64,000 bases of DNA from NCBI GenBank assembly GCA_038496445.1, contig JALMLS010000299.1, forward strand, positions 62,001 to 126,000. Direction: 5' to 3'. The notes under the pieces were generated by a model. It searched no databases. It was given only the letters and a program-made list of their open reading frames with translations, and was not told where the DNA came from. The position numbers were made by a program, and so were the translations under genes. The DNA comes from Trichosphaerium sp. ATCC 40318 (taxonomy: Eukaryota; Protista; Tubulinea). Shown here piece by piece: positions 17,843 through 37,924 of the stretch; the stretch's first letter is position 1, and every line of letters begins with the position of its first letter.

Positions 17843-19206
17843 ATGGCTGAAACCAAAAAGAAAGTGGTTGTAGTTACTGGAGCTACCGGATTCCTTGCTG
17901 GACATGTCATCAAGCAGCTTCTTGAGAAAGGCTATTCTGTACGTGGTACAGTTCGTAATTTAAACAACAAAGAAAAGTCACAGCACCTTATCGACATCGC
18001 TTCCGAACTTGATGGCGAACTAGAACTATTCGGTACGCACTACTCTTTCAGGGTTTAAATACATATTTTACACCTATTTTAGAAGCAGATTTAACAAAGA
18101 AAGGATCATTTGACGAAGTCACGTGTGGAGCAAGCGTTGTAATCCACACAGCGTCACCTTTTGCTTTAGTAGTCAAAAACCCTGAAGAAAATCTTTTAAA
18201 ACCAGCGTACGCTTTATTACAAGGCGTTTGCGTAATAACCACTTATATTCATAGCGTTGAAGGTACAATTGACGTACTGACATCTTGTAAAAAATCAGGG
18301 ACAGTCAAGAAAGTGAGACAACTGTTTTTACCTTTTTTTTTTGACACGTGCCTTACCTTTTGTCTCCTTGTAGGTAGTTTTAACATCGTCTGTCGGCGCG
18401 ATTGAGTTCGAGGGTAAAGTGCCAAATGGGCAAATACCAACATTCACAGAGGAAGACTGGAACACAACTTCAACAGTAAAATATCAAGCGTATGCTTTGA
18501 GCAAAGTTCGCGCTGAAAAGGCTGCTTGGGACTTTGTTAAAGATATCGATGAGTTCTCCCTTGTTACCATATGTCCTTCTGTTATCTTAGGACCTGTTTT
18601 ATCGAAAGGAGGTTTAAGTCAAAGCGTAGGCATAATTAAGAGGCGAGCTCACTTTACTGGGTTTTTTGATAACACTTTGTTGTTAGTATTGTCAATGGTG
18701 ACTATCCTCGAGCGCCTAACCTTACTTTTTGTGTTGTGGATGTTCGTGACGTAGCAAAAGCACATATACTAGCTATGGAAAACGATAAGATAAAAGGTAA
18801 GAATCATAGGTCTAAAATGTGTTTTTGATTATCTCACTTTTCTCAGGACAAAGATATATTTGTTCAAAGGAAACAAATCCAACTTGTTTGGACTTGTGCA
18901 ACGTCATTCGAACGAACTTTCCAACTATGCCAATACCCACGAAACCAATGCCAAACTTAGTAATGTATATAGCTGCTATATTCGACTCAAGATTGACATG
19001 GGGTTGGCTAAGGAAAAAACTAAACCAACAATACTTTTTCGACAACACAAAAATAAAAAAGTACGTATAACAGTTTACATCTACTGCGTACTATGATCAC
19101 TTATCAAAAGAATAGAGACATGGGTATAGAATTCCGTGAATTAGAGGAATCATTAGTAGATACTGTCAATTCATTGGTTGAGTTTGGATTTGTTTCGAAG
19201 TTGTAG
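17843..19206 (+). CDS. NAD(P)-dependent epimerase/dehydratase (dihydroflavonol/cinnamoyl-CoA reductase, GRE2-like)
   Basis: VVVTGATGFLAGHV, VIHTASPF, VVLTSS, catalytic YALSK, VDVRDVAKAHILA. Confidence 0.92.
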
Positions 19207-19323
19207 AATTAAAACTAACACTAACAATTTTGTGATAAGGTACTTGCAACCCAAGGCCTTTCACAACAATAAACGATTTTTGATTTATACTCGCTGGTGG
19301 TAATACTTTCGTGTGTACGCGCA

Positions 19324-19345
19324 CTGGTTTGTATTGTATTGTATT
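19324..19345 (-). repeat. Target-site duplication copy (CTGGTTTG) and 3' pentanucleotide tail (AATAC)3
   Basis: Plus strand reads ctggttt-gtatt-gtatt-gtatt; the same ctggtttg recurs at 28777-28784. Confidence 0.75.
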
Positions 19346-19406
19346 AATGGGTAAAGGTCAAAATAATTCCAAAAGAGCGAAAAAATGCAAATATTTTATT
19401 ACGATT

Positions 19407-20112
19407 TTACAGCGGTTGATTGATTAAAATGCGATCGAATTCAGAGATTACTGGTGGAAAGACCCTCGCTTTACCGATACCGTTAAGGTACCTTGTAATG
19501 TGATTTTTGTACGATGTCTTGAACTTAGGTAGTATAAAGTGCTTACACTCGCTCAATACTGACCACTCTGGTAATGGTCCCCTTAGCGCTACTGCCTTCA
19601 TAGCGTTATCTATGATGTCTACAGAACAGCCCTTTACGAAACTAAGATCTCTTTTGAAAGAGGTTCCATTTGCGCAGTTGTATCCTTTACTTAGTTCCCA
19701 AGACACCAAGAACTCGTAATGGCCTACTGCTAATTTACCCAATCTCTCGCTGAAATAAAAGTAAATTATGTGAAATAAAGGAGCATGGGTTTGTTTACTT
19801 GAAGTTCGGTGGTATTGGTTTCACAGCCACCAACTTAATACTGCCTCTGGAGTGGCTAACGTAACCAGACAATCTGGTGACAACAGTTAAGAAACCCATT
19901 TCATCGCCAAAGTAACCAGAGCGCCCAATGCGATATTTGCCCTTCTCGTGGAGTGACTCGATAACGTACAAAACGCCGTTGTCCCATGAACCATCGGTGA
20001 TTGAAATAAAGAAGTCTTTGAAGAATATTGCAGTAGGACAGGCTTCTCGCCTAAGCATCTTAATGCATTCATCTTCGCTATCTCTCCAATGTGGTATTTT
20101 GCGTTCAGCCAT
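19407..20112 (-). CDS. LINE ORF3: two-exon 218-aa protein with T5orf172/MUG113-like (GIY-YIG) motif; exons 20112-19799 and 19749-19407
   Basis: A 49-nt GTAAAC...TTTCAG intron joins two ORF-track fragments in frame (PPNFN-ERLGKL); GVLYVIES...KYRIGRS...TRLSGY pattern; AATAAA just after the stop. Confidence 0.7.
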
Positions 20113-20388
20113 CACTTGCGGTTTCACTGGTTTGATATGTTAAAAATAATTTAATCAAGTTTCGCTTGATTGATGTTGTAAAGGTCAGATCAAGTCTTAT
20201 CTTGTGCTGTCCTCTTCTCCGAAGGCCGGTTGTCGGCTCTCACGTAAGTCACGGCGGCGATAGCCGCCGTGTATCTTCTCCGAGTTCTCAACAGAAAACT
20301 TTAACATGGAAGAAGATAGTTCGGATAATAACCCATCGTTACCCTTCAGAGCTCGCCTAGGCGGCTCCAGGGCGTTATATTAATTGTT

Positions 20389-23300
20389 TTACGTGATAGG
20401 GCTACCGGCAAATCGCCGGTAGATATCTTCCATCTCTGGGCATTCGACAAATTCAGTGTTGTAGTCTATCCACCATTGTTCGTGTAATTTGCATCTTTTT
20501 TGGTAAATACCGTGTATCATCTTGGCTAAGGCGAGATGTACTTTTTTTAGAGACTTAGTGATTGCTACTGAGTCGCAGCCTTGATCTTTCAGGCTGTTCA
20601 CCAGTTTTTTAGGAATGTAAGCTTTAGCAACCAGCTCCTTGGTTTCGAGACTAGGTGCCGTGTTGCGTCTAAAGGAGCAGATGTCATTCGCAGATGGCCA
20701 GAATCGTTTGTATTTGGCTCGTGGGAGGTGTTCTTTCATGGCTAGCTTTATTTCTTTAGCTGTATCTTGTCGATAACTTTCATATTTAGGGCAATCGGCG
20801 ATCACGTGCAGATTGGATTCTATTTCATTACAAAACATACAAACGTTGTCAGAGTATTTATCTTTATTAACTCCAGGCCAGTTTTGTATTGCCCTTTTAT
20901 GCATGATTTCACGTGTGCATAGTTTGTCGTTTCTCGCTTTGAATAAAGTGTTATTAATTTTTTTCATTGTGTAATCTGGTTTGCCGAAGTTAATTGCCGA
21001 GACGCTCATGTCGGCTTTATCCATGATTGGTCTGCGCTCGATGAGCTCTTTGTTCGCCTTTTCTTTAAAAGTTTGAGCTATGTATTTCCGTATGTTTCCT
21101 TCGATAGGTTTAAGTTTTTCGTCGTATAGTGTATAGTCTAGCATTCCGTTGAGTATTTTACCTTCAACTTCGTCAGCTTCTCTACCCAGATTGGCTAGTT
21201 TATCGGCTTCTTCGTTGCCTTCAAGTATCCACTCTATGTTTCTACCAAAGGTGTTTTTGAGTGTATTTACCTCCGCCATGAGTCTTCCCATGCGGTTAGG
21301 TTCCTTTTTGTATGCCTTGATTTTTTTATTGAAGTGGCTAGGTACTTTGTGTATAATGCAGTCACCGTTATTGTCCGCTCTATCTTTAAGAGCGTCGCGG
21401 AGTTCTTTAATGGCTATCGCATTGGGCGAGAAAGGGGAAACCGAGTCACTACATGCCATCTTAATGACATAAGTGGAATCCGTAAATAAGTACATAGGTT
21501 GATCTATTGGGACCACCTTAACAGCTACTATGGCTGCTTCTAATTCAGCTGCATCGATGTCTTGTTTGGTGACTGCTCTACATGCAAGGTTGTTAAGATT
21601 ATCTTCACCGAAGTAGACTCCAACCCCAGCGACATTACCATTTTTCTTTTGAATACGAGAGCCGTCTGTCCAGACGCAAACAAAGTCTTTATGCCAGTGC
21701 CAATCGTCGTCTACGCTACTGTTGATGGTGGATATGCTGTTATTGGAGAGAGTGGCCTTATTGAGGGCACATTTTATTGCCTTATTATTACCTTCAGTTA
21801 TGACTTTGGCTAGTGCGTGATAGGTATATTCGGTAACTGTTTTGCCAAATAACTTACATATTTCATTTCTGTCTACTAGTCTACCGTTACGTATCACATT
21901 GACTTTAGTGATGTCATCAAGAAGGCCTAACGATGTGAGTGTGTCACATTGTGTTTCGTTAAGCATAATGGGTAGTGGTGGTGTTTCAGTGACACTAGCC
22001 ACGCACGTCATGTTCATTTTTAGTAGCATTTTCTTATACATAGTAAGTCTGTCGTCATTAATATTTATTTTTATTTTCTTGGCATGATGAGTTTGTGCTG
22101 TTTGCCTAAGTCCTTTTCTGTTGATGGTTGGAAGGTAAATGTTGTCCGTCAGTCTTTGTTTAGTGGTGACTTGTGGGAGCGAGCCATTTTCTGCGTTAAG
22201 TGCAAATTTATATGTGTTGGCGACGAGTGCTATTTGGTTTGCAAGCATCGGTGGAACTACTTCCTTGCCATCCAGTTCGCGGCTAGCCCAGAGTTGGCAG
22301 TGTTTGGATCTAGAGGTCATAGGGATGGCTCTGAATAGCATCTGAACTACCGCTTTTTTGAGTTTTTTCATGATGTCTAGTGGAAAAGAGTAGAAATTCA
22401 TATGATATTTTAGAGCTTCGTTTAGTACTCTATTAATGATGGTTATTTTGCAGTCATATGGAACTGCTCTGCCTGATATGAGGTTTAATCTATATATGTA
22501 TGCAGACTTAACAGCTTGAGCGTCACGATTCCAGTCCAGTTTTATGTTGATGAAAATGCCTAAGTATTTGTAGGATTTACCAATTTCGATGCCTGGAAAC
22601 TCGACCGAGATATTATTTCTTATAAGTACCAGAGGGTCTGCTTCCTCTGAACTCATATATTTTGTTTTAGCTTGGTTGACTTTCCATCCATTGTAATCGC
22701 AAAAGTTAAGGAAGTGGTTCATGGCGTTGGTCAGATTTTCTTTGTTCTCTGCTATGAGTACAATGTCATCGCAGTATGCTAAGACTGAGATTTGTATGTT
22801 GGAGTTATTAGCGAACTGATAGCCTTGAATATTATTCGAGATGTATTTAATTATGGGGTTGAGGCATAGGACGAAGAGCATGGGTGATAATATATCTCCT
22901 TGTTTAACGCCATTGGTGATGTCAAATTGTTCTGAGAGACCGTCGATAGTGAGGATTTTGCCGCTACAGCCATTGTATAGGGCTGAGATAGCTTCAATCA
23001 TGATATTTGGAAACTTGTAGTACTTAAGCGTTTTGATCATAGACCAGTGTTCAACTGAGTCGAACGCTTTACTTATGTCAATGAATAACATTGCCAATTT
23101 TTTCTTTTCGGCAAATTGTCTCCTGTCTTCAATGACGTTTATGAGCGTAGTGATGTGTCCTACCGTGGATCGCTTTGGTCTGAATCCATTCTGTTCGTTG
23201 GCGAGGATGTTATTTCCATCCACAAACTCTAAGATTCTGTTATATAATAGTCTGGTGTATATTTTGTATTGAACTGCTAGGAGTGCTATAGGTCGGTAAT

Positions 23301-25479
23301 TTTTTGGATCTGTAGGCGAGGATCCTCTTTTATGTATAAGATATAAGTAAGAGTTTTTCCATGTGTCTGGCATGTAACCTTTTGTATAGCAGCCGTTAAA
23401 AAGGTTGAGCATAATATTAAGATATTCGTCATTGAGTTTTTTATATACCTCTGCAGGTATTCTGTCTTCGCCAGATTGTTTCCAGCTTTTGGTGGCTTCT
23501 ATTGCCTCTTTTAGTTCTTCCATTGTGAAGGTTTTGGTATCCATTTGAACTTTGGAAGTATCTATTTCTTCATTGAGCCAGTAAGGGTCTCCGGATGGTA
23601 CTGTGTCTACTTTGTTAAGTATTTTGTCCCAGGCTTTAACGAAAAGAGACATTTTTTCTTTATGATTGTTGGTCACAACACCTGAATCAGGATCTTTCAG
23701 AGGGCTATTAACCGCCGTACCTTTGCGTTGTAATAGGTTGTCGAAAAAGGCTTTAGGATTGTCATGGAACTTATCAATCAAACCGTTTATTTTCTCTTTT
23801 ATAGAATCCGCTTTGTATGCTGTTGCTCTTTGGTCTCGTTTTATTTTAATGTGTTTGATTATTAGTTTAATGTACTCTCCTAGGTCATCTCCATTACCTT
23901 TCTCTTTAATATTTTTTGTGATTTTGTCTTCGTCATGTATAACCAGTTTCTTACATTCTTTACGGATATTTATTAAAACGTTGAAGCATGATTTAACTTC
24001 CGAGGTTGACATGTCAATAGGATCTTTGGATTTGTTGATTAGTTTTTGTACTCTATGTTTAAGATTACCCCATTTTCTAAGTTCATGATCGTTGGATGTT
24101 CTGGTTTTGCGAAATTCTCTGTGTTTGGTGCCTACTAAGTCTTTACAGTTATCGTAGATTTCTTCTGTAAGGTTTTGCGCTAGATTGTCTAGACTGAGAA
24201 GTGAATCACTGTTCAGCCATCTGTTAAAGTTGCGATGTAGTTTATCGCTGATCATAGTATCATTGATAAGGCCTAATTTGTCACTTCTAGTATTAAGACT
24301 GTCTTTTGGTTGTTCTAGTTTGGTGCCTTCATCCGTATTTCCCTTCCACCACCATTCGAACTCAATAAGTATCGGATAATGGTCACTATCTGTGAACGGA
24401 TCATCATCAATAGAGAAGTTCCACACTCTAAGTTCGTCTGACTTTTTAACAAGGAAGAAGTCTAGAAGTGCCTTGCAGCTGAAGATTCTTTCCTTGTCTA
24501 TATATTTCATACTTACTCTGGTGAACATTTCTTTATTTGGGTATAGTATTCTATGAGCTGCTACTAAATCTCTCTCTTGCATGAGGTCTGAAAGCGCTTC
24601 TGATTTATGATCTGAGAATTGCATATTGTGGTTATCTGCGTACCATCTATCAGTGTCTTTATTAAGTACTGAGTTGAAATCGCCACCGATGATTACGTGT
24701 TTTTTCGTACTGTTGAATTTATTTAAATATACATTGATTATATTATTAACTTTACAGAAAAATTGATCTTGTTCGTTAGAACCACTGCAAGGGGAGTAGA
24801 TGTTGGTGATTATGATGGTCGTGTTCTCATCTCCAATTGCTATAAGTAAGATTTTTCTGGACGTGTCGTAGTATACTTCTTTGACTTTGTCTACTAATTC
24901 TTTACGGACGAAAATACTGATGCCTTCTGATTTTTTGAATACTTTGAGTTTGTCTTTTTTTATGCGTAACTTGTCAATGGCTGTCCTTTTTTCTTCTTCA
25001 GTAAGGTCTCTTTTGAGTTTGGCTATTTGTCCACGGAACCATTTTTCTCTCTTATCTTCTGTTGTGAGTAAATTGGTGTACATTTTGTAATTGTCGAGGA
25101 GCGCCGAATCAGTGTCGTGTTTTAATTCAGCTTTATTACACATCATTTCTTGTACTAGGATTACGTCCGCTTGCATTTTCCTAGCTTGTAACATGATTAA
25201 TCCTGAGCTGATAAACCATTTACCTCTGCAGTTGATTGAACAAACTTTTATACAACTCTTATCGCCGCTAATGTTAATGTGATCTGTGTTGTCCGCCCTA
25301 ATTGCGAACTCCAATTGTTTATTGGTAATTTCGTTTTTTGAAAAACCTCCGTTATTGTATCTTTTTGCTATATTACGAATTTCTACTTCTCTGTGTTCGG
25401 TACTGCGGATGCTCGGCCTCGTTCCAGAATGCCCTTTATTTCTGGAGCGAAGACCATAATTGTGTTTGCTACTTAACAT
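20389..25479 (-). CDS. LINE ORF2: apurinic endonuclease + reverse transcriptase + RNase H + CCHC zinc finger, intronless
   Basis: APE: SINCRG, ILVQE, NIYSP, GGDFN, SDHYPI. RT: NYRPIALL, QNGFR, DISKAFDSV, GVKQGDILSP, YCDD, YKYLG. RNase H: WTDGS, AAELEAA, TDSTY, KVPSH, GNEEADKLA. CMFC-x7-H-x4-C knuckle. Confidence 0.97.
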   Translation of the reverse strand: MLSSKHNYGLRSRNKGHSGTRPSIRSTEHREVEIRNIAKRYNNGGFSKNEITNKQLEFAIRADNTDHINISGDKSCIKVCSINCRGKWFISSGLIMLQARKMQADVILVQEMMCNKAELKHDTDSALLDNYKMYTNLLTTEDKREKWFRGQIAKLKRDLTEEEKRTAIDKLRIKKDKLKVFKKSEGISIFVRKELVDKVKEVYYDTSRKILLIAIGDENTTIIITNIYSPCSGSNEQDQFFCKVNNIINVYLNKFNSTKKHVIIGGDFNSVLNKDTDRWYADNHNMQFSDHKSEALSDLMQERDLVAAHRILYPNKEMFTRVSMKYIDKERIFSCKALLDFFLVKKSDELRVWNFSIDDDPFTDSDHYPILIEFEWWWKGNTDEGTKLEQPKDSLNTRSDKLGLINDTMISDKLHRNFNRWLNSDSLLSLDNLAQNLTEEIYDNCKDLVGTKHREFRKTRTSNDHELRKWGNLKHRVQKLINKSKDPIDMSTSEVKSCFNVLINIRKECKKLVIHDEDKITKNIKEKGNGDDLGEYIKLIIKHIKIKRDQRATAYKADSIKEKINGLIDKFHDNPKAFFDNLLQRKGTAVNSPLKDPDSGVVTNNHKEKMSLFVKAWDKILNKVDTVPSGDPYWLNEEIDTSKVQMDTKTFTMEELKEAIEATKSWKQSGEDRIPAEVYKKLNDEYLNIMLNLFNGCYTKGYMPDTWKNSYLYLIHKRGSSPTDPKNYRPIALLAVQYKIYTRLLYNRILEFVDGNNILANEQNGFRPKRSTVGHITTLINVIEDRRQFAEKKKLAMLFIDISKAFDSVEHWSMIKTLKYYKFPNIMIEAISALYNGCSGKILTIDGLSEQFDITNGVKQGDILSPMLFVLCLNPIIKYISNNIQGYQFANNSNIQISVLAYCDDIVLIAENKENLTNAMNHFLNFCDYNGWKVNQAKTKYMSSEEADPLVLIRNNISVEFPGIEIGKSYKYLGIFINIKLDWNRDAQAVKSAYIYRLNLISGRAVPYDCKITIINRVLNEALKYHMNFYSFPLDIMKKLKKAVVQMLFRAIPMTSRSKHCQLWASRELDGKEVVPPMLANQIALVANTYKFALNAENGSLPQVTTKQRLTDNIYLPTINRKGLRQTAQTHHAKKIKININDDRLTMYKKMLLKMNMTCVASVTETPPLPIMLNETQCDTLTSLGLLDDITKVNVIRNGRLVDRNEICKLFGKTVTEYTYHALAKVITEGNNKAIKCALNKATLSNNSISTINSSVDDDWHWHKDFVCVWTDGSRIQKKNGNVAGVGVYFGEDNLNNLACRAVTKQDIDAAELEAAIVAVKVVPIDQPMYLFTDSTYVIKMACSDSVSPFSPNAIAIKELRDALKDRADNNGDCIIHKVPSHFNKKIKAYKKEPNRMGRLMAEVNTLKNTFGRNIEWILEGNEEADKLANLGREADEVEGKILNGMLDYTLYDEKLKPIEGNIRKYIAQTFKEKANKELIERRPIMDKADMSVSAINFGKPDYTMKKINNTLFKARNDKLCTREIMHKRAIQNWPGVNKDKYSDNVCMFCNEIESNLHVIADCPKYESYRQDTAKEIKLAMKEHLPRAKYKRFWPSANDICSFRRNTAPSLETKELVAKAYIPKKLVNSLKDQGCDSVAITKSLKKVHLALAKMIHGIYQKRCKLHEQWWIDYNTEFVECPEMEDIYRRFAGSPIT

Positions 25480-28400
25480 ATTTGTATAATTTATTATTGC
25501 GGTTCAAGATAGGGCTCTCGTTTACAAGGGCTGTAAACTTACGAGCGTGTGTGTGATAGTAGTTATGATTTCGGTTTATACGCATCAAATACTTTGTACT
25601 ATGAGGATTTTGTGTATATCCAGCGATGATGCAGCATATTTTATGCGTTATGTAAAGAAAAGGCGCAAAGTTGTAACAAATAGGTTCCCAAATGGTATAG
25701 TTATCTTTGTTACGCGTAGAGAAACATATATGTGTGTTTGTTACGCGAAGGGAAAAGGAAGAGATTCTTGGATGTTTAAAAGGTTTGTTTAGTTTCATAC
25801 CAAGTATCAACGAGCGTATACTTACTAGAAAGAAGGGAAATTTGTGTGGAGAAAGTTTTCGAAGCGAGTTATAGTCATTTAATTGTTTCAACGCAGATGA
25901 ACAGTAAAAGGTATGTGGTAAAAGAATTACTAAGGAACCAAGTATTTGAGGAGCTTTAAATTTATTTTTTTTTAGAACACAGCAGAACCTTGAATACCAA
26001 TCGAGTTTGAAGACTGTAAGTAATTTATACGTCTTGTTTTGGAGCTGATAATTTGTCCAGTTTTTCTTGAGTGGCCTTGCTGAGGCCGATGTCACATTCA
26101 ACGTCTCCCAGATAGTCATCAAGAGAAGGCTTAGCGGTGATGGATTGCTTACCGGCAGTGGCTCTTGCTCTGGAGCGCGATCTAGACGATCTGGTGGCGA
26201 CTCTACAAATTCTGCCCGATCCGAGTCCAGTATTTGGGTCGATGTTTTCCTTCTCGATGATGTTTTTAATGTCTGACATTTCTTCGTCAGAGTTGGCTGT
26301 GTCAGACCAGGAGATTTCATCATCTCCGGTAACATCAATGTAAGTGGATTTTTTCTTCTCCTTCTTTTCTTTGACGGCATTAGAGGTGTTGTTTGTCGCA
26401 TTGGATGAGTTTTCAATATCAAGAGAGCCACCGTTTTTGAGAATTTCTCTAGTGACAAGTTCACGTGTATCATTGATACTAAATTAATAATGTAAGAATA
26501 CTGTGTAATATTATGTAAGTGAAAGATAAAAAATACTTGCGCTTTAAGGAGTGAGACTACGTTTCTGGATAGGCCTTGGATCATTCCTTTTACATACACA
26601 ATTTCGTTATGCATTGTGAGAAGGGCTGGGTTGTTAGGTTTTACCGTTTTCCCGTTGTTGGTGCATCTACCTTCCTTGTAGTTGAATCCATTCATTGGTT
26701 CCATAGGGAGTCTATCAAGGAGGGTTCTATTGTAATAGATTTCAGGCGAGGTGAGGTAAGTGATTTCGTTTTCGAAGGCGCTTTTGGTAAGCGTAACATA
26801 GACGCATCCGTCTATGGCGTCATCTTTTCGAGGATCCATGGCAGGAGCGAGATCTTTGGTGTCAAGCCTGTCTTTGAAGAGCTTGTGCATGTATTTAAGA
26901 CCGGTGGCAATAGGCAAACCACGAGGCATCTTAGGTACAATCAAGGTGTATTTGTGATGTGGTTTGTATGGCGTTTGGAGAAACATTGTCCAATTATCTT
27001 CGCCGAACATGTTAGTCATTCTGATGGCGTCGTTTCGAGCGTGAGCGTCAACAAAAACTGCACTACCGTATTGGTGAGTTTTGTTCCAAGAGGCTGCCAA
27101 CATTACTGAGTTGTTACGGTTTTTGCGGCGATTGGCTTTACGATTATGGGCACCAACTATGTTTGTGATAGATGGGTCGATGAGTTTGCCTATTTTTATG
27201 TGAGAATATGATATTGTATAATTGAGAATTAACGATGAATGTGTTTTAATGTGAGAGAGAAAACAGATCCAAGAGTGGGTTTTGTTGGTGTCGTGATTCA
27301 TTTTCTTTGAATAAAAAGGAGTGTTTTGGGTTTGTTTTGGGATTGAGAAGAAGAAACAAAGAAGAAATAGATGTGTATGCGTGGTAGTTTTGTTATAGTT
27401 TTTGGTAGTATTGTGAGCGATAACGATACCTCTAGTGATGGAAAGCAGCGTGGCAACTGCGCAATCAGTGGTTTTGGAGTAGAACACATGTGTTTTGGGG
27501 CGTCTTTCAAGGCGAACCGCCAGTTCGCGACAGGTAGAAGCATCTTGGAGGAATACGTAGACCATCGGCATAAAATCAGGACCCATTTTGAACTTGTTGA
27601 TTTCGATCCCCTCAGCAAGATCTTCAACCGATACCGATATACCTCTAGAGGTGACGGTATGATCGTTGACCACCACTATTAGGAGATATCCATCCCGAGT
27701 CTCAAAAGGTTCATCAAGAAAACTAATAAAGTGAGAATTATGTGGGAAGTGTCTAAAAATGAGATTCTTTTGATAATATAATAGTGAGGAATTAAAGTCG
27801 AACTGTTTGCATTCTTGAGAAACATCTGGGAGGAAGGAGGACCCGTTATCATCGTCATCGTATCGATCATCATCTCGACGACGACGTTTGTTAGGGCCTT
27901 TGCCTTTACGGTTGATTCTGGAGCTATCCAGATGAGGGATAGTTAACACTAGGCGTTGTGACATGTTTGATAGTTGTTTAATAATGGTTTTAGGGTGGGA
28001 GAGGATTAGACCTTCAAAGTTTTTTATTTCCTTTTTGATCGATTTGGAAAAAAGTTTTCTTATCTCAGTATTGTGGGTAGGTTGGTTCGCAAAACTTTTT
28101 CTGGTACTTTCTCTTGCGATATGAGACTTGGGTACTTTTGTTATTTCCCCGTATTTTTTAAAGTATTTTTTACTAATGTATTTAAATGTGAATTGGAAGT
28201 CATGTGTAAATTTTTTCGATTTTTTGTCGTTCCCTATTACGGTGGAATTGTTGAGGAGATATTGTGGAGAAATCCTCTTAAATTTGGCGTAAACGCCAAG
28301 TTTTGTTTTAAGTTTTAGTCGTGGAATTAAATTTAGGTCTAACTGTTGTGTTTTACGGCCTATATATGTGATGTGGAAGGAAAGAGGATGGTCTATTGTG

Positions 28401-28600
28401 TTATTTGGCTTTTTAAAGTAGTAGCCATTACTAAATGTTTTCCCGCCAATGTTCTTGAACATCGATAAACTCGGTCCTTGCATTGTCTGTTTGTCACATT
28501 CAGCTTTAGCTGACGTAGATAAAGTGAACTTAAGAATTGCAGCAGTTACTCCCTTCTGGGCAGATAACCTCCCATCGTAATGGGTGTATGTGTTTGTCAT
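25469..28600 (-). CDS. Stop-free long ORF of the unspliced LINE RNA (1043 aa from the first in-frame ATG), overlapping the ORF2 start by 11 nt
   Basis: ORF track 25469..28666 (GTG start); first in-frame ATG at 28600; ends AAA TAT GTT AAG TAG, which contains the ORF2 ATG in the +1 frame. Confidence 0.6.
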   Translation of the reverse strand: MTNTYTHYDGRLSAQKGVTAAILKFTLSTSAKAECDKQTMQGPSLSMFKNIGGKTFSNGYYFKKPNNTIDHPLSFHITYIGRKTQQLDLNLIPRLKLKTKLGVYAKFKRISPQYLLNNSTVIGNDKKSKKFTHDFQFTFKYISKKYFKKYGEITKVPKSHIARESTRKSFANQPTHNTEIRKLFSKSIKKEIKNFEGLILSHPKTIIKQLSNMSQRLVLTIPHLDSSRINRKGKGPNKRRRRDDDRYDDDDNGSSFLPDVSQECKQFDFNSSLLYYQKNLIFRHFPHNSHFISFLDEPFETRDGYLLIVVVNDHTVTSRGISVSVEDLAEGIEINKFKMGPDFMPMVYVFLQDASTCRELAVRLERRPKTHVFYSKTTDCAVATLLSITRGIVIAHNTTKNYNKTTTHTHLFLLCFFFSIPKQTQNTPFYSKKMNHDTNKTHSWICFLSHIKTHSSLILNYTISYSHIKIGKLIDPSITNIVGAHNRKANRRKNRNNSVMLAASWNKTHQYGSAVFVDAHARNDAIRMTNMFGEDNWTMFLQTPYKPHHKYTLIVPKMPRGLPIATGLKYMHKLFKDRLDTKDLAPAMDPRKDDAIDGCVYVTLTKSAFENEITYLTSPEIYYNRTLLDRLPMEPMNGFNYKEGRCTNNGKTVKPNNPALLTMHNEIVYVKGMIQGLSRNVVSLLKAQVFFIFHLHNITQYSYIINLVSMIHVNLSLEKFSKTVALLILKTHPMRQTTPLMPSKKRRRRKNPLTLMLPEMMKSPGLTQPTLTKKCQTLKTSSRRKTSTQILDSDRAEFVESPPDRLDRAPEQEPLPVSNPSPLSLLLMTIWETLNVTSASARPLKKNWTNYQLQNKTYKLLTVFKLDWYSRFCCVLKKNKFKAPQILGSLVILLPHTFYCSSALKQLNDYNSLRKLSPHKFPFFLVSIRSLILGMKLNKPFKHPRISSFSLRVTNTHICFSTRNKDNYTIWEPICYNFAPFLYITHKICCIIAGYTQNPHSTKYLMRINRNHNYYHTHARKFTALVNESPILNRNNKLYKYVK
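26025..27964 (-). CDS. LINE ORF1, spliced form (~520-545 aa), RRM-like domains plus coiled coil and charged tail
   Basis: Removing introns 27429-27190 (GT-AG) and 26540-26479 (GC-AG) gives a continuous protein-like sequence (ITRG-KLIDPS; SLLKA-INDTRELVTRE). RNP-like motifs YGSAVFVDAHARNDAI, YTLIVPKMP, GCVYVTL. AATAAA ~60 nt after the stop. Start codon inferred. Confidence 0.65.
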
Positions 28601-28776
28601 ACTCTGGCAAAGTTTTTTAACTATTGAATACGATAAACCATAAGGTTTATGGAGCGAACGGTACACATTTAGTGTCAGTGTGACGTAGCTAGATCTATCT
28701 TGTTATCGATAGGGGCTATGTAGAAAAGAACAAACAATTTCAGACGAGCTTTCACACTCGAATTTTGCCGTTTTTT

Positions 28777-28784
28777 CTGGTTTG
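28777..28784. repeat. Second copy of the target-site duplication CTGGTTTG
   Basis: Identical to 19324-19331; lies ~180 nt upstream of the element's first long ORF. Confidence 0.7.
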
Positions 28785-28848
28785 CTTCCTCTGATGTTTT
28801 TGTTCCGAAGTCAAAACTAGTCATGTGTCAGTGGAATTTGTTTCAAAA

Positions 28849-31295
28849 ATGTCAAGAGCACCTCGCCTTTTTGATGATGATGACGTAGCTAAAACAGCTG
28901 AAGGGTTGAATGTCAATACTACATTTTCAGAAAAGTACTTTCGCAACAAAATGCAGAAAGAAATATCTGAGAGTACGTCACTACGCGTTTATATAACTCC
29001 TAACAAGCTTTTATAGAAAAAGACCGATTGTTGCATACAATAGAGCGTAATCCCGTTGATTCGGACTCTGGTTCTGAATCAGACTCTGCTGAAGGCGTAG
29101 ACGCTACTTTCTTAGAGCATCTGCCTATTCTTGCGAAAAAACCAGTATCTATCAAAAAAACGATATTTTCAGTACCTCAAAAGCCAAAAAAAAAGGTAAC
29201 AGTTTAATGTAAGACATAATCAAAGTAAATTCTGTAAATTAGGCAGTTGAGGCGCCATACACCGTTAAAGAATTCATCAGAGAGACTGCATTCGACGCAG
29301 ACGAAAAAGTACCAGTAGCAAAGGTTTGACACTTTTTTTGTTTTTGAACGCGACGGAAACGGGTACTAAACGCTTACTAGAAATCTAATCAAGCCACAAT
29401 CGAAGACGAATTAATAGAACTAAAGCACGTCAAATTACAACCGCTTTATTGCCATTTTTATTTTTGTTGTTAAAAAGTCCTTTAGGGAAGGTTTTCAAAC
29501 TGTTATAGATGAACTGGAAGCAGATGAAAGTGACTTTCTTGTTCCTGCAGAAGAAGATGAAGAAAATAGTGATGATGAGCGGGAAGCAGATCAAATGTAT
29601 AAAGATGTTGTCAAGTCAATCTCTAAATCCGTAAGTGTCAAAAAAATCCATCACATTTTTTTTTTCAGTATTAATTGTTTCACGTGTAGGGAAACAAGAA
29701 AAAAGTAAAAGATGTCGAAAGTACGACTCTTTCTCTTATTTATTTATTTGTTTGATCTTGCGTGGGTATTAACAAAAATCAGGTTATTGGTCTGCAGAAG
29801 GAGCAAGCAAACAAGATACATTTTTACGTCAGTACTTTAAAGGTCAAGGGTGGCTTTATGATGATATAAGTATAAAAGAGATTAAAGAAACAGATAAACA
29901 AGGTGATAATAAACCAGCTACAACAGTAGTAGATGATCCTTTCGAATTTAAGCATCCGTACGTTATGTATCTTTTCTTTATCTGTTTCTATGAAATCTTT
30001 CAGCATTAAGTAGTACTTGTGATTAACTTATCAATTAGAAATGCAAAAGATTATGACAGCTACCATGGGCGAACAGGTGGATCTGTTTCGATGAGGAGGT
30101 ACAGCACAACTAAACTCAAAAACATCTTCAAAGAATTTTTTTATTTTTAGTGGCCTTGGCTTAAATTCTCCCGTGTCAAGTGCTCCTTGATACCATTTTA
30201 ATTCAATACTTATTTTTACAATTTAAACTCCCTAAGCTTACGAAATTCAGGACAAAACATAAACGTGCAGAGAAAAGAAAACGACAAAAAGAGAATAAAG
30301 CAAAAAGAAAAAAAGCATTCATAGAACAAAAAAAACAATTAATGAACCTACGTAAAATGCAAATTCTAGATCGCCTGGCTAGAATAAAGCGTGATGCTAA
30401 CCTCGATGATGGTACACATAAACAAACAAACCCACATCTTTAGTACACCAGTAAATACTCACAGTAAATTATAGACGCAGTTAGACAGCTTGATATACAA
30501 GCTGAGTTCAATCCTGACACTCACGACGAACTTATGGAAAAAATATTTGAACAAGGAATGAAAGAAGAAGAACTTGAGTCTGATGGTGAGGATCCTAAAA
30601 AACCAGAGTTTGTTGATGATTATGATGCACTACCGTTACTCTCAAAGACTAATGCTTTGATTAAACGTAAACGTGAAATGGATATTTGTCCTGATTTGGA
30701 AAAAGATCTCCAAGATTATTATAGCTTAGATTTTGAAGATGTTGTACGTAATAACTGCTATACAATTTTACATTATTTCACAAATATATCCTTTGAAAAA
30801 ATTATGTTCAACAAGCACAAGCGGTCGAGAAAAATTTTTGGGCTTTTTTTTCTGAAACTTTCACTTGAGGACGTTGCTTTTTAACCGTTTCGTTGTTGAT
30901 GTGTTGACCATTGATTTCTTTCTTTTTAGATTGGAGATGACCTTTATTGTCGTTTTAAATACAGAGAAGTTGAAGCAAATGATTATGGCATTAATCTGTA
31001 TGAGATGCTAATGAATGATCCTAAAGACTTGAATCAGATTGTTGGTAGAAAAGTTTTAGCTCCTTACAGAGAAGATCAAGGAAGAGTTAGACCAGATATT
31101 ATTCGTAATAAAATGGCAGCAGTAGAGACATTTCAGAGGTTTCCTGATGGGCCTAGCGCAAAAGTAGACAAAGAAAGGCTTATGTCTGAAACAGCGCTTA
31201 AAGGAACAAAAAGAAAGATGGTAGGCGCTGTAGCAAACCGTAAACAGAAGAGAAAACGAAGAAAGAAAAGTAAAGGAACACGTAGTTACCAATAA
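28849..31295 (+). CDS. KRI1: KRI1 homologue (40S ribosome biogenesis)
   Basis: KRKRQKENKAKRKKA...KKQLMNLRKMQILDRL; YYSLDFEDV-IGDDLYCRFKYREVEANDYGI...DLNQIVGRKVLAPYRED. Confidence 0.85.
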
Positions 31296-31576: not shown

Positions 31577-32955
31577 TTAGTCTACCAATCTCAAAACTTT
31601 CTCAGATAAAATCTTCATTTCTTCAGCTGTTATTCTCTGTCGTACAAAGCTTTCACCTGACCAAGGTTCCAAGGAAGCAAAACACGATGTTTTTGTTGCT
31701 TGAGGAGAATTAAGTACCAAAGTAATAGTACAACCATCAATAGCGTTCACGCTATGTAAAACGGAAGGATGCATATAATAAAGACCACCTTTCGATACTG
31801 TCGCTTGTTCTACTCTTGCTAATGATATTGTACCCAAAGGATTGATATTAAATACATTTGTACCATCCTCAGTAACAGTAGGGGAATAAACGTATTTTTG
31901 AAATGATATAACTTCAGATTCTTGTTCTTCTGGTACACAATGTAAAGGTTCTTCCCATAATTCTTGAGTGATACTACCGTGTACTATATGAGAAACAAAA
32001 TGGTTTCTATGACTATGGACTTCCTCTTGAGCTTCTGTAAATTCTTCAGGTGAAAACACGTGCATTCGAAGTTTCCATGCGGAACGTTTTCCTTTCAATA
32101 GAACTGTCTTATCAAATAAATCGTGATGGTAAGAGTTTCCGACACATTCGTCAAAATGAGGTTGAGATGCCATTAATCTGGATAGTAGTGTCTTGAAATG
32201 AGAGCCAAGGCCATATACTAGCGAATCAACAGAAGTAGCATCAATCACGTGAGGTTGACAAGCAGAACGCTCAATGACTCCTTCAATCAAGTCTCGAATT
32301 TGCTCTATTGAATCGCCTCCTTCACAATTCGTAAAAATATCACCCACGTGTGCTACATAGCGACTTCGTGCTTTCTCATCGCATATTGGGAATAGTTTTT
32401 GCATGTGTGGAATACCTAAAGGGGTTAGAAACACGAATTACAAAGAGGATTTTTGACGACAAGAAAGGAAAAAAAGGTTGTACGTGTTTCCCATGCATTT
32501 TGTTCTCCTTTCTTTATTATCAATTCACAGTCACTGGAAGTTATAGGACGTCCTTTCATTACTCTGCATTCAGCCTTGACTGTTTTACGCAGTTCCAAAA
32601 ATTGTTGCTTAGATTCTCTGTCTGCGTCGCGCATCAGACGAAGAGTTTCGTAAAGTGTATCAAGTTTTGCTTTTTTCTCAGGATTTCGCCTGTCTCCTCG
32701 CATGGAATTTCTTACGGTCTTTATTTCTGCTCTTATGGCCCTCATTCTACTCAATGCTGCTTGTCTTTTCGTTTTCCCGATGCGTCTAAGCTCTTGCGAA
32801 AACACGGGATAAACAATGCGTTTAAACCCTCTCTTCGCAGGTGGGGGTTCCTCATCATCGTTTAAGGGTTGCTCTGTGGTTTTAGACGTATTTGATGTAT
32901 CTACACCTCCATTTAAAGGAACTACTCGCCTATATGGTTGACCGCGTTCTGCCAT
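31577..32955 (-). CDS. Two-exon protein: basic helical N-terminus plus cupin (cysteine-dioxygenase-like) domain
   Basis: GTACAA...TTTAG intron (~32421-32483) joins the two ORFs in frame (WETR-IPHMQK); cupin ligands HSHRNHFVSHIVHG and YYMHPSVLHSV. Confidence 0.72.
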
Positions 32956-33813
32956 GACTGTTTTTAATACTTTCGTTCAATACAAAACAATACCAAATGT
33001 GATTGTTTAGTAAGTTGTTAAAAGTGTTGAAACACGTGCACTGAATGAGAACCCACCGTGAAAATAACTTGGCTGAATTATCACTGTGCTACACTGTTTA
33101 ATCCTTCAGTCTTGGCAAGACTTTAATAATTGTGATGGGTAATTTAGCAATGTTTGTGTAGCACCGTGCGGTTTATTGTCACAACAATAAGCGCTGGAGG
33201 GTACCACGACACACCCACCATTGCGACACTTGTAACATCCTGTAGGACGACGTCACATGCCACTGCATTATGGTGAGCACTGGAAGCGGAAGCTGAATTA
33301 AAAATCTTGTTTGCTTCAATTGGTTGTTGCGTACAAAAAACTTAGTACGCTATTAAATACTCGAAGGAGTTCTATAACATTATTACCACAACAATCGCAA
33401 GCGCCACATGCATGCTATAGTTGCAAGTCCAAAAATATAAGTTTGGTTTCCGCAAAGAACTTCAACTTTTAACTTTGCTTCCGATTAATAAGTGCATCAG
33501 GAAGGGCTACCTAAGTACGCCGTAGCAATGATTTAAGCTGCCGCGTACAACAAGGTATTTTTTAAAATTAGACTGCACGGAATATTGTACACACTTCGCA
33601 CTACGCTGTTCAGCAGTTTTTAAATAACATTGTGTGGCGTACAGGTTTATTTTCTGGAACACCAAATTAGAAAACTAAAATATAAGGTAATTTGTTGAGA
33701 ACCAAAACGCACGACAATTCATGCTGTAGAGCGCTGAATATTGTCGGGGTGCGCTAAAAAACCAAAGTCATATTTCACGAATTTCCAACTTAATCAGCTA
33801 AACAACAAACACT

Positions 33814-36835: not shown

Positions 36836-37924
36836 ATGTTTTGCAAGGTACGTACAGACAAATATTAACTTATTATATACCTATTGGTGTATATAATTAC
36901 TTCTAAAACAAACTACAAGGTTGTATTGTTTTGTGGTTTGTTGTGTGCTCTTGCATTAGCTCAAGAATGCACCATCGCTGAAGTTAAACAATTTGGAGGC
37001 AACTTCGCACCGAGGAATTGGGCATTTTGTGCTGGGCAATTACTAGGTATGTCATTGCTGTTGGTTGGCGATTAGGAATCTAAATTATTCTTTACGTTAG
37101 CGATAAGTTCGAACCAAGCTCTGTTTGCCCTTCTGGGTACCACATACGGTGGGGATGGCCGAACTACATTTGCGTACGTAGTTGATTACGTTTGCATAGC
37201 ACAAGTTTTAAATAGAGTTATAGGCTTCCTGATATGCGTGGACGCTCTCCAATGGGCGCTGGTACAGGTCCAGGTACGTACTGCTCTGTTTTTACTCAGG
37301 TTTTGGGTGTTTTGTCGAATAACGTCGTATAGGTCTTACCCCAAGGACACTGGGTCAAAAAATTGGTTCTGAAGATGCTCCTCTGCCTGCCCATGGGCAC
37401 AGTATTAACTTGGGTGCTGCAACTGTTGCGACTACCACACAACTTTCTGGAAGCCCAGGTTTATCCGGAATTAGCGTCTCTTCCGCGTCACAAACAGTAG
37501 AATTTCAGGCGTCCACTACTACTTCAAGAAAGGAGGCGCCAGTTCCTCCACCATGTAGTGCAACACCTTTGCAAAACATGCTAAGAGTTGCAAACTCTTG
37601 TCAAGAATTAGTGGACAATTGCCCTATAGCAATTGTGAATGCTACAGATATAGGAACAGCATCTAATACTATAGATACAACTGGATTTGGAGTTGACGCT
37701 TCCAACATTGCTGTAGAAGGTAAACAACATTTTTGACCTATTTTCTATTCTCTTTTTTTTTTGTATTGCGTTGTCTAACCACACTGCTAGTTATTGCAAC
37801 TACAACGGCTACACTTTCAAGTGGTTCAGTATCATCAACAACTCCTGGTGCTACAAACGTACACCCTGTCTTAGCAACAAACTATATCATCTGCTTGCAG
37901 GGAGTTTTCCCTTCACGTAATTAA
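36836..37924 (+). CDS. Phage tail-collar / microcystin-dependent protein (MdpB)-like protein with signal peptide and 5 introns
   Basis: Spliced: IAEVKQFGGNFAPRNWAFCAGQLLAISSNQALFALLGTTYGGDGRTTFALPDMRGRSPMGAGTGPGLTPRTLGQKIG...LPAHGH...HPVLATNYIICLQGVFPSRN. Confidence 0.9.

Follow-up and report, generated by a model that had tools for sequence, protein, structure and literature searches.

The window, the whole 64-kb stretch of DNA analyzed here, carries on its minus strand an APE-type non-LTR retrotransposon (LINE), and the finding described below concerns the 5′ half of this element (Table 1). ORF2 gave Pfam matches above the cut-off to PF03372 (E 2e-9), PF00078 (E 3e-38), and PF00075, its catalytic and Cys/His residues were invariant or near-invariant, and its top PDB match was human LINE-1 ORF2p (E 2.7e-33). 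An AP endonuclease followed by a non-LTR-type reverse transcriptase assigns the element to the LINEs. We presume that Proto1 of Naegleria, an RNase H-bearing LINE of the L1 group, carries the same three enzyme domains as this ORF2 (endonuclease, reverse transcriptase, and RNase H) and, at the C terminus, a Cys/His motif as well. Pfam and repeat searches detected none of the long terminal repeats, protease, or integrase of Ty1/copia elements, and, among the 20 of 22 direct-repeat families listed for positions 19300-29500, the longest repeat measured 29 nt at 79% identity. Neither a poly(A) tail nor a target-site duplication was found around the element; the search of its flanks for such duplications returned three 8-mer matches, about the number expected by chance. 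The window contained neither a tRNA gene as a possible target nor an Rfam match. Several hairpins were predicted in the likely 3′ UTR (about -86 kcal/mol over 269 nt, a value without a shuffle control). Judged from these sequence features, the element is an intact RNase H-bearing LINE.

Table 1. Features of the LINE in the window (positions are those of the window)
Feature	Positions	Strand	Basis
Leader, non-coding-like yet stop-free in frame A	27965..28702	-	Codon-position GC, shuffles
Frame A, 1,077 stop-free codons across leader, ORF1 exons, both likely introns, and spacer	25469..28702	-	ORF scan
ORF1 exon 1, likely start ATG 27964	27430..27964	-	Aligns with P0121 from the start of the P0121 core
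Likely intron A, 240 nt, GTATCG...TAG, phase 1, in frame, stop-free	27190..27429	-	Absent from P0121
ORF1 exon 2, RRM-like region and start of predicted coiled coil	26541..27189	-	P0121 alignment, weak RRM matches
Likely intron B, 62 nt, GCAAGT...TAG, phase-2 donor; splicing moves frame A to frame B	26479..26540	-	Frame analysis, P0121 register
Dual-coded last ORF1 exon; frame B gives the predicted ORF1p C terminus, frame A merely open	26025..26478	-	Codon use
ORF1-ORF2 spacer, non-coding-like yet stop-free in frame A	25472..26026	-	Codon-position GC, shuffles
First AATAAA past the frame-B stop; a short ORF1 mRNA may use it for polyadenylation	25961..25966	-	Hexamer
Stop-start overlap: ORF2 ATG at 25479, frame-A TAG 25471-25469	25469..25479	-	Sequence
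ORF2, 1,696 aa: AP endonuclease, reverse transcriptase, RNase H, C-terminal Cys/His motif	20389..25479	-	Pfam, PDB match
Likely 3′ UTR with predicted hairpins; end of element not fixed	20140..20388	-	Fold prediction, flank search

Counted from its first ATG (28600), frame A comprises 1,043 codons, and its stop falls 8 nt past the ORF2 ATG. GC content in the leader (738 nt) was flat over the three codon positions, and no frame-A stops were present where 14.9 were expected; none of 1,000 shuffled leaders was stop-free. Likewise, the spacer (555 nt) had flat GC content and no stops versus 11.1 expected, and stop-free shuffles were again absent (0 of 1,000). The two likely introns, taken alone, were stop-free in 40 and 358 of 1,000 shuffles, respectively, and are too short for significance. 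We infer that the openness of the leader and spacer reflects selection for an open frame without a protein function. A 2A-like (NPGP) motif was found neither in frame A nor in any of the fetched proteins, unlike in the 2A-containing single-ORF LINEs Ingi and L1Tc.

All seven ATGs of the leader lie between 28600 and 28203, and four short out-of-frame upstream ORFs follow the first frame-A ATG. From 28202 to 27965 (minus strand) there are no leader ATGs, compared with 2.6 expected. Both in the window (28602) and in the related element L081 described below (positions 589-591), a donor-like GTAT site overlaps the first ATG in the long frame. A candidate leader intron of 430 nt (28602-28173, minus strand) would leave the ORF1 ATG as the first ATG. 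An ORF1 mRNA may bypass the seven leader AUGs, either through an internal promoter or through splicing of the leader at the donor-like site 28602.

When frame A was used as the query against 1.84 billion representative proteins, a single match was obtained, P0121 (E 7.7e-7). This 859-aa frame begins with about 258 non-coding-like leader codons, in frame, followed by a core that is 22 to 25% identical to the window's ORF1; intron A, which contains 5% G, is absent, and P0121 is continuous across its position. Removal of the likely introns increased the phmmer score against P0121 from 43.6 to 60.1 bits. Spliced at 27430^27189 and 26541^26478, ORF1 is predicted to encode a protein of 545 aa. RRM signals consisted of Atlas RRM leads of 0.76 to 0.78 and an RRM_1 match in P0121 that fell short of the cut-off (E 0.0078); the window itself had no Pfam match in this region. 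An AlphaFold2 model built from the two-sequence alignment reached a pLDDT of 31. The leader, introns, and spacer of the window did not align with the corresponding parts of P0121. Further relatives of ORF1 were sought in three ways: a word-based search with frame A from 27190 to 26028 (none of 1,457 candidates was an ORF1 relative), a word-based search with the P0121 core (only P0121 itself among 4,213), and a scan of viral contigs with exon 2 (no match).

A preliminary description of this DNA, made from its sequence, had proposed that positions 26478-26025 are coded in two frames under the control of a GC-AG intron. The observation was confirmed, and its interpretation was supported in part and widened: the segment forms part of a more extensive layout with a second likely intron and a frame that lacks stops throughout the 5′ half. 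The segment is open in two frames of the same strand, frame A and frame B (26483-26025, 152 codons). Splicing at 26541^26478 yields the junction peptide that had been named, SLLKAINDTR, followed by 151 further codons. Use of the nearby GT donor at 26536 would lead to a stop two codons on, as had been stated, and the same applies to donors at 26560, 26557, and 26542. The assertion that the GC donor at 26540 alone restores frame B held in part: this site does restore it, but so does a GT at 26501, which would define a 23-nt intron. With the acceptor at 26479, frame B is regained from two of the six GT or GC sites in the interval 26560-26501. Overall, a GC-AG intron followed by a dual-coded exon is supported by the sizes of host introns, the presence of a GC donor in the host, codon use in frame B, and compatibility with P0121.

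Synonymous resampling indicated that two open frames of this length would rarely coincide. With the frame-B protein fixed, a single trial of 20,000 kept frame A free of stops (8.7 stops on average); with frame A fixed, frame B was never open in 20,000 trials (9.3 stops on average). Codon log-likelihood in the dual-coded exon was +0.285 bits per codon in frame B, close to the value for exon 2 (+0.297), versus -0.252 in frame A. Because the codon bias of the element is found in frame B alone, frame B is probably the coding frame, and frame A is simply maintained without stops. The frame-B C terminus is acidic and rich in Lys and Arg/Ser, and the predicted heptad repeat, followed by eye, continues in register across the GC junction. 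In P0121, read as a protein, an ungapped register from an N-E/D-I anchor places L-Y-V opposite A-Q-V of the window and F-A-G-S opposite N-L-V-S. This register was chosen (MAFFT and phmmer place a 3-residue gap just before the junction), and under it the P0121 residues at the site of intron B would fit a GTAYGT donor in phase 2 and an intron of 62 nt; tripeptides matching this pattern are found at 0.25% of positions. The P0121 tail contains 1% D+E, resembling out-of-frame readings (2 to 8%) and unlike in-frame readings (12 to 18%). The other frame back-inferred from P0121 was not significantly closer to frame B, as 80 of 198 other starts scored as high.

The host is an intron-rich eukaryote, probably a protist, and the 14 introns of two hand-modeled genes in the window range from 44 to 126 nt, one of them having a GC donor. 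That intron (AG/GCGAGC, 44 nt, 18643-18686, plus strand) lies in an NAD-dependent epimerase/reductase-like gene. Compared with the features of GC-AG introns, intron B has a consensus-like GCAAGT donor, a TTTAG acceptor, and a length within the host range; its -1 base, C, is atypical. A donor matrix built from the 14 host introns scored the GC site at 3.4 bits, versus 3.1 at 26536 and 5.8 at 26560, and thus expressed no preference for GC. The preliminary description had interpreted the GC donor as a weak site that sets the ratio of spliced to unspliced RNA. Such a ratio-tuning device need not be invoked, as a simpler constraint accounts for the GC: a retained phase-2 GTAAGT or GTGAGT always gives a premature stop, according to excerpts of an earlier study (PMC2911113), and a GC would occupy this donor because a phase-2 GTAAGT would read TAA in the open unspliced frame. 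Placed in this setting, 8 of the 14 host donors would create a stop and 6 would be stop-free. From these sequences, GC would be allowed, not forced, at a phase-2 donor. A weaker donor may additionally favor intron retention.

The preliminary description had also noted an AATAAA after the frame-B stop and had suggested internal polyadenylation of the ORF1 mRNA. The hexamer is present, 59 nt beyond the stop. ORF2 contains 15 more AATAAA on the same strand, and the hexamer on its own is weak evidence for internal polyadenylation. AATAAA was found within 150 nt of four of nine putative host gene ends, compared with a background of 14%; as some of these ends are unsure, this is suggestive only.

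Three scans yielded 166 loci, of which most were short or belonged to other LINE groups; two, L081 and L097, were read in detail. L081, 31% identical to the window in the reverse transcriptase region, consists of one 2,029-codon frame that runs from the leader into ORF2. Two frameshifting introns were predicted in it, one of 50 nt (GTATGT...CTAAT...TAG, phase 2) and one of 89 nt (GTAAGT...TACTAAT...CAG, phase 1). L081 has its canonical GTAAGT in phase 1, a position in which it does no harm, and GTATGT in phase 2. Spliced as predicted, L081 would encode a 486-aa ORF1 whose first and last exons are dual-coded. Its leader contains no stops versus 24.9 expected and its spacer none versus 7.7, and AATAAA occurs twice in the spacer. 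L081 is filed in an archaeal bin and is evidently eukaryotic; no second full element was found in the genome behind it. L097, which belongs to the same ORF2 clade, has an ordinary 773-codon ORF1 with an ATGA overlap with ORF2. Because of this ordinary ORF1, the design is not clade-wide, and the elements with stop-free introns examined as DNA number two, the window and L081. Short contigs with LINE-type reverse transcriptase matches (L081 to L160) occur in many prokaryotic genome bins, a sign of eukaryotic contamination.

An ORF2 tree of 52 rows (50 of the 120 matches listed, the window, and L097), built quickly, midpoint-rooted, and without named references, grouped 22 rows in a clade with the window's ORF2 (SH-aLRT 98). 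An RNase H profile, derived for the most part from these same rows, gave scores for 20 of the 22. In seven of the 22, 687 to 1,026 aa preceded the endonuclease in the same frame; in 5 of the 22, the start of the endonuclease could not be placed. Among the 120 matches listed, nine exceeded 1,900 aa, and all nine were in the window's clade. By eye, P0021, P0026, and P0040 show short hydrophobic insertions resembling translated introns, one of which is absent from P0026. Together with P0001, P0008, and P0010, they are catalogued as proteins of 2,167 to 2,598 aa. The N-terminal halves of all six read as if leaders, introns, and out-of-frame exons had been translated, and these proteins are likely mis-called read-throughs of spliced ORF1 genes.

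As judged from these sequences, it is probable that one frame, open from the leader to the start of ORF2, serves two RNAs: splicing of the two likely introns would give the true ORF1p, and unspliced RNA would give ORF2p and the template. RNA spliced at both junctions would encode ORF1p (545 aa) and might be a short mRNA with its 3′ end in the spacer. The RNA of a LINE is its own template, and ORF2p binds preferentially to the RNA from which it was translated. The unspliced RNA would have to be the template, because the introns would otherwise be lost at each retrotransposition. Cotranslational binding of ORF2p to its RNA is put forward as speculation in excerpts of a previous article (PMC10830420). 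If ORF2p binds its own mRNA, it must be translated from unspliced RNA. Ribosomes would then cross the leader, introns, and spacer and restart at the overlapping ORF2 ATG; in the fused relatives, they would continue into an ORF1-ORF2 fusion. As ribosomes would have to reach ORF2, selection would act against every stop in the unspliced frame, and the open frame would also spare the unspliced RNA from nonsense-mediated decay.

Protection from nonsense-mediated decay could also be the sole reason for the open frame, with ORF2p made by internal initiation or from a shorter RNA of its own. The four leader upstream ORFs agree with this, as does an in-frame ATG in the L081 spacer about 50 codons before the endonuclease; moreover, where there is no 2A-like motif, nothing obvious would free ORF2p from fused junk. 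However, the frame-A stop just past the ORF2 ATG in the window and the ATGA overlap in L097 fit a coupled restart, and we regard decay protection alone as unlikely. It is less likely still that the long frame-A product is itself functional, for example as a membrane-anchored form of ORF1 or of an ORF1-ORF2 protein, with the intron-like parts coding for domains. More than 1,000 open codons and the hydrophobic stretches ahead of the endonuclease in several relatives would suit such a product, but the leader, introns, and spacer show neither codon-position bias nor coding-like codon use and are not alignable to their P0121 counterparts. Furthermore, T-rich non-coding DNA gives hydrophobic translations by itself.

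Entry into frame B by a route other than the GC donor, either through the 23-nt intron from the GT at 26501 or by a -1 ribosomal frameshift, would be compatible with the ability of that GT to restore the frame and with a host matrix that does not single out the GC site. Against this, 23 nt is shorter than all 14 host introns, and 13 to 21 intron-like residues would interrupt a predicted heptad repeat that is continuous across the GC junction. A frameshift would have to occur after the frame-B stops at 26513 and 26486, beyond which no X XXY YYZ slippery heptamer was seen. We therefore give this route slightly less credence than a functional frame-A product. An assembly indel or chance could have divided one gene into two frames, and the element is indeed present as a single copy; with both frames open side by side for 150 codons and a layout common to two divergent relatives, such an artifact is highly improbable. 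The reading we favor remains that of a spliced ORF1p and an unspliced ORF2p template. Its extension, that a widespread and undescribed lineage of RNase H-bearing protist LINEs keeps spliceosomal introns through retrotransposition, purging stops from the unspliced frame and having splice sites shaped by codon phase, seems to us slightly better than an even proposition. A junk frame of approximately 1,000 codons would then serve as a ribosome runway to ORF2, and a leader intron may switch the fates of the RNA.

LINEs are regarded as intronless, the reason given being that their RNA is the template, and how ORF2 is translated, and why it is scarce relative to ORF1, are long-standing questions. 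Splicing of copia-type Gag has been described for Arabidopsis EVD/ATCOPIA93, barley BARE1, and Drosophila copia, and in EVD the splicing that makes Gag is tied to early polyadenylation (excerpts of PMC5580714 and PMC3735527). As far as these excerpts go, the likeness is that a retained intron keeps the frame open to the polymerase and that splicing shifts it to a stop and gives the structural protein. The sequences of the window and of L081 show this layout. In contrast, Ty1/copia elements, as described there, have LTRs and a single intron located after Gag, whereas the window's element is non-LTR and combines two predicted introns inside ORF1 with a dual-coded exon of 150 codons and with a leader and a spacer that are both open. 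Stop-start coupled translation of ORF2 has been reported for SART1 (PMC5972666) and mammalian LINE-1 (PMC3894237), and the excerpts of these articles likewise place the end of the upstream frame at or near the ORF2 start. That upstream frame, however, is an intronless ORF1, whereas the stop-free frame of the window coincides with ORF1 only partly; the excerpt of PMC3894237 does not mention splicing.

Penelope-like elements also keep introns through retrotransposition, which is called highly unusual among retroelements in excerpts of PMC8557442, but they form another class (with a GIY-YIG endonuclease or none), and those excerpts do not describe a stop-free unspliced frame. Human L1 SpIREs resemble the present case in that a LINE RNA has splice sites in its 5′ half; according to the sections drawn on, L1 splicing cuts the promoter or ORF1 and inhibits retrotransposition (PMC5860796), whereas splicing in the window is predicted to build ORF1p. 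The TART introns belong to antisense RNA (PMC1636488, in part), and the introns mentioned in the excerpts of PMC3956500 are reporter introns only. No description of the stop-free-intron design in a LINE was found in the literature searched, subscription journals and Repbase Reports lying outside that search. The strategy is thus known in other retroelements, and an earlier description for LINEs is possible outside the literature covered.

If the favored reading is true, non-LTR elements would have arrived independently at the Gag/Pol solution of copia and retroviruses. The element would provide a clean test case for selection on an open frame without a protein function, and its GC donor would be explainable by a cause other than weak-site tuning. 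It would also serve as a warning that the "single-ORF" LINE proteins of 2,000 to 2,600 aa catalogued from metagenomes probably represent spliced genes mis-called as read-throughs.

Host genes surround the element in the window. A two-exon gene at 31577-32976 (minus strand) had no Pfam match, and the His-rich motifs of its second exon recall, in our assumption, a cupin fold. The product of the gene at 37076-37736 (plus strand) presumably has a motif resembling the phage tail collar domain. Finally, the gene at 28849-31295 (plus strand), which we take to be KRI1-like, lies head to head with the LINE open frame, the two starts being about 150 nt apart.
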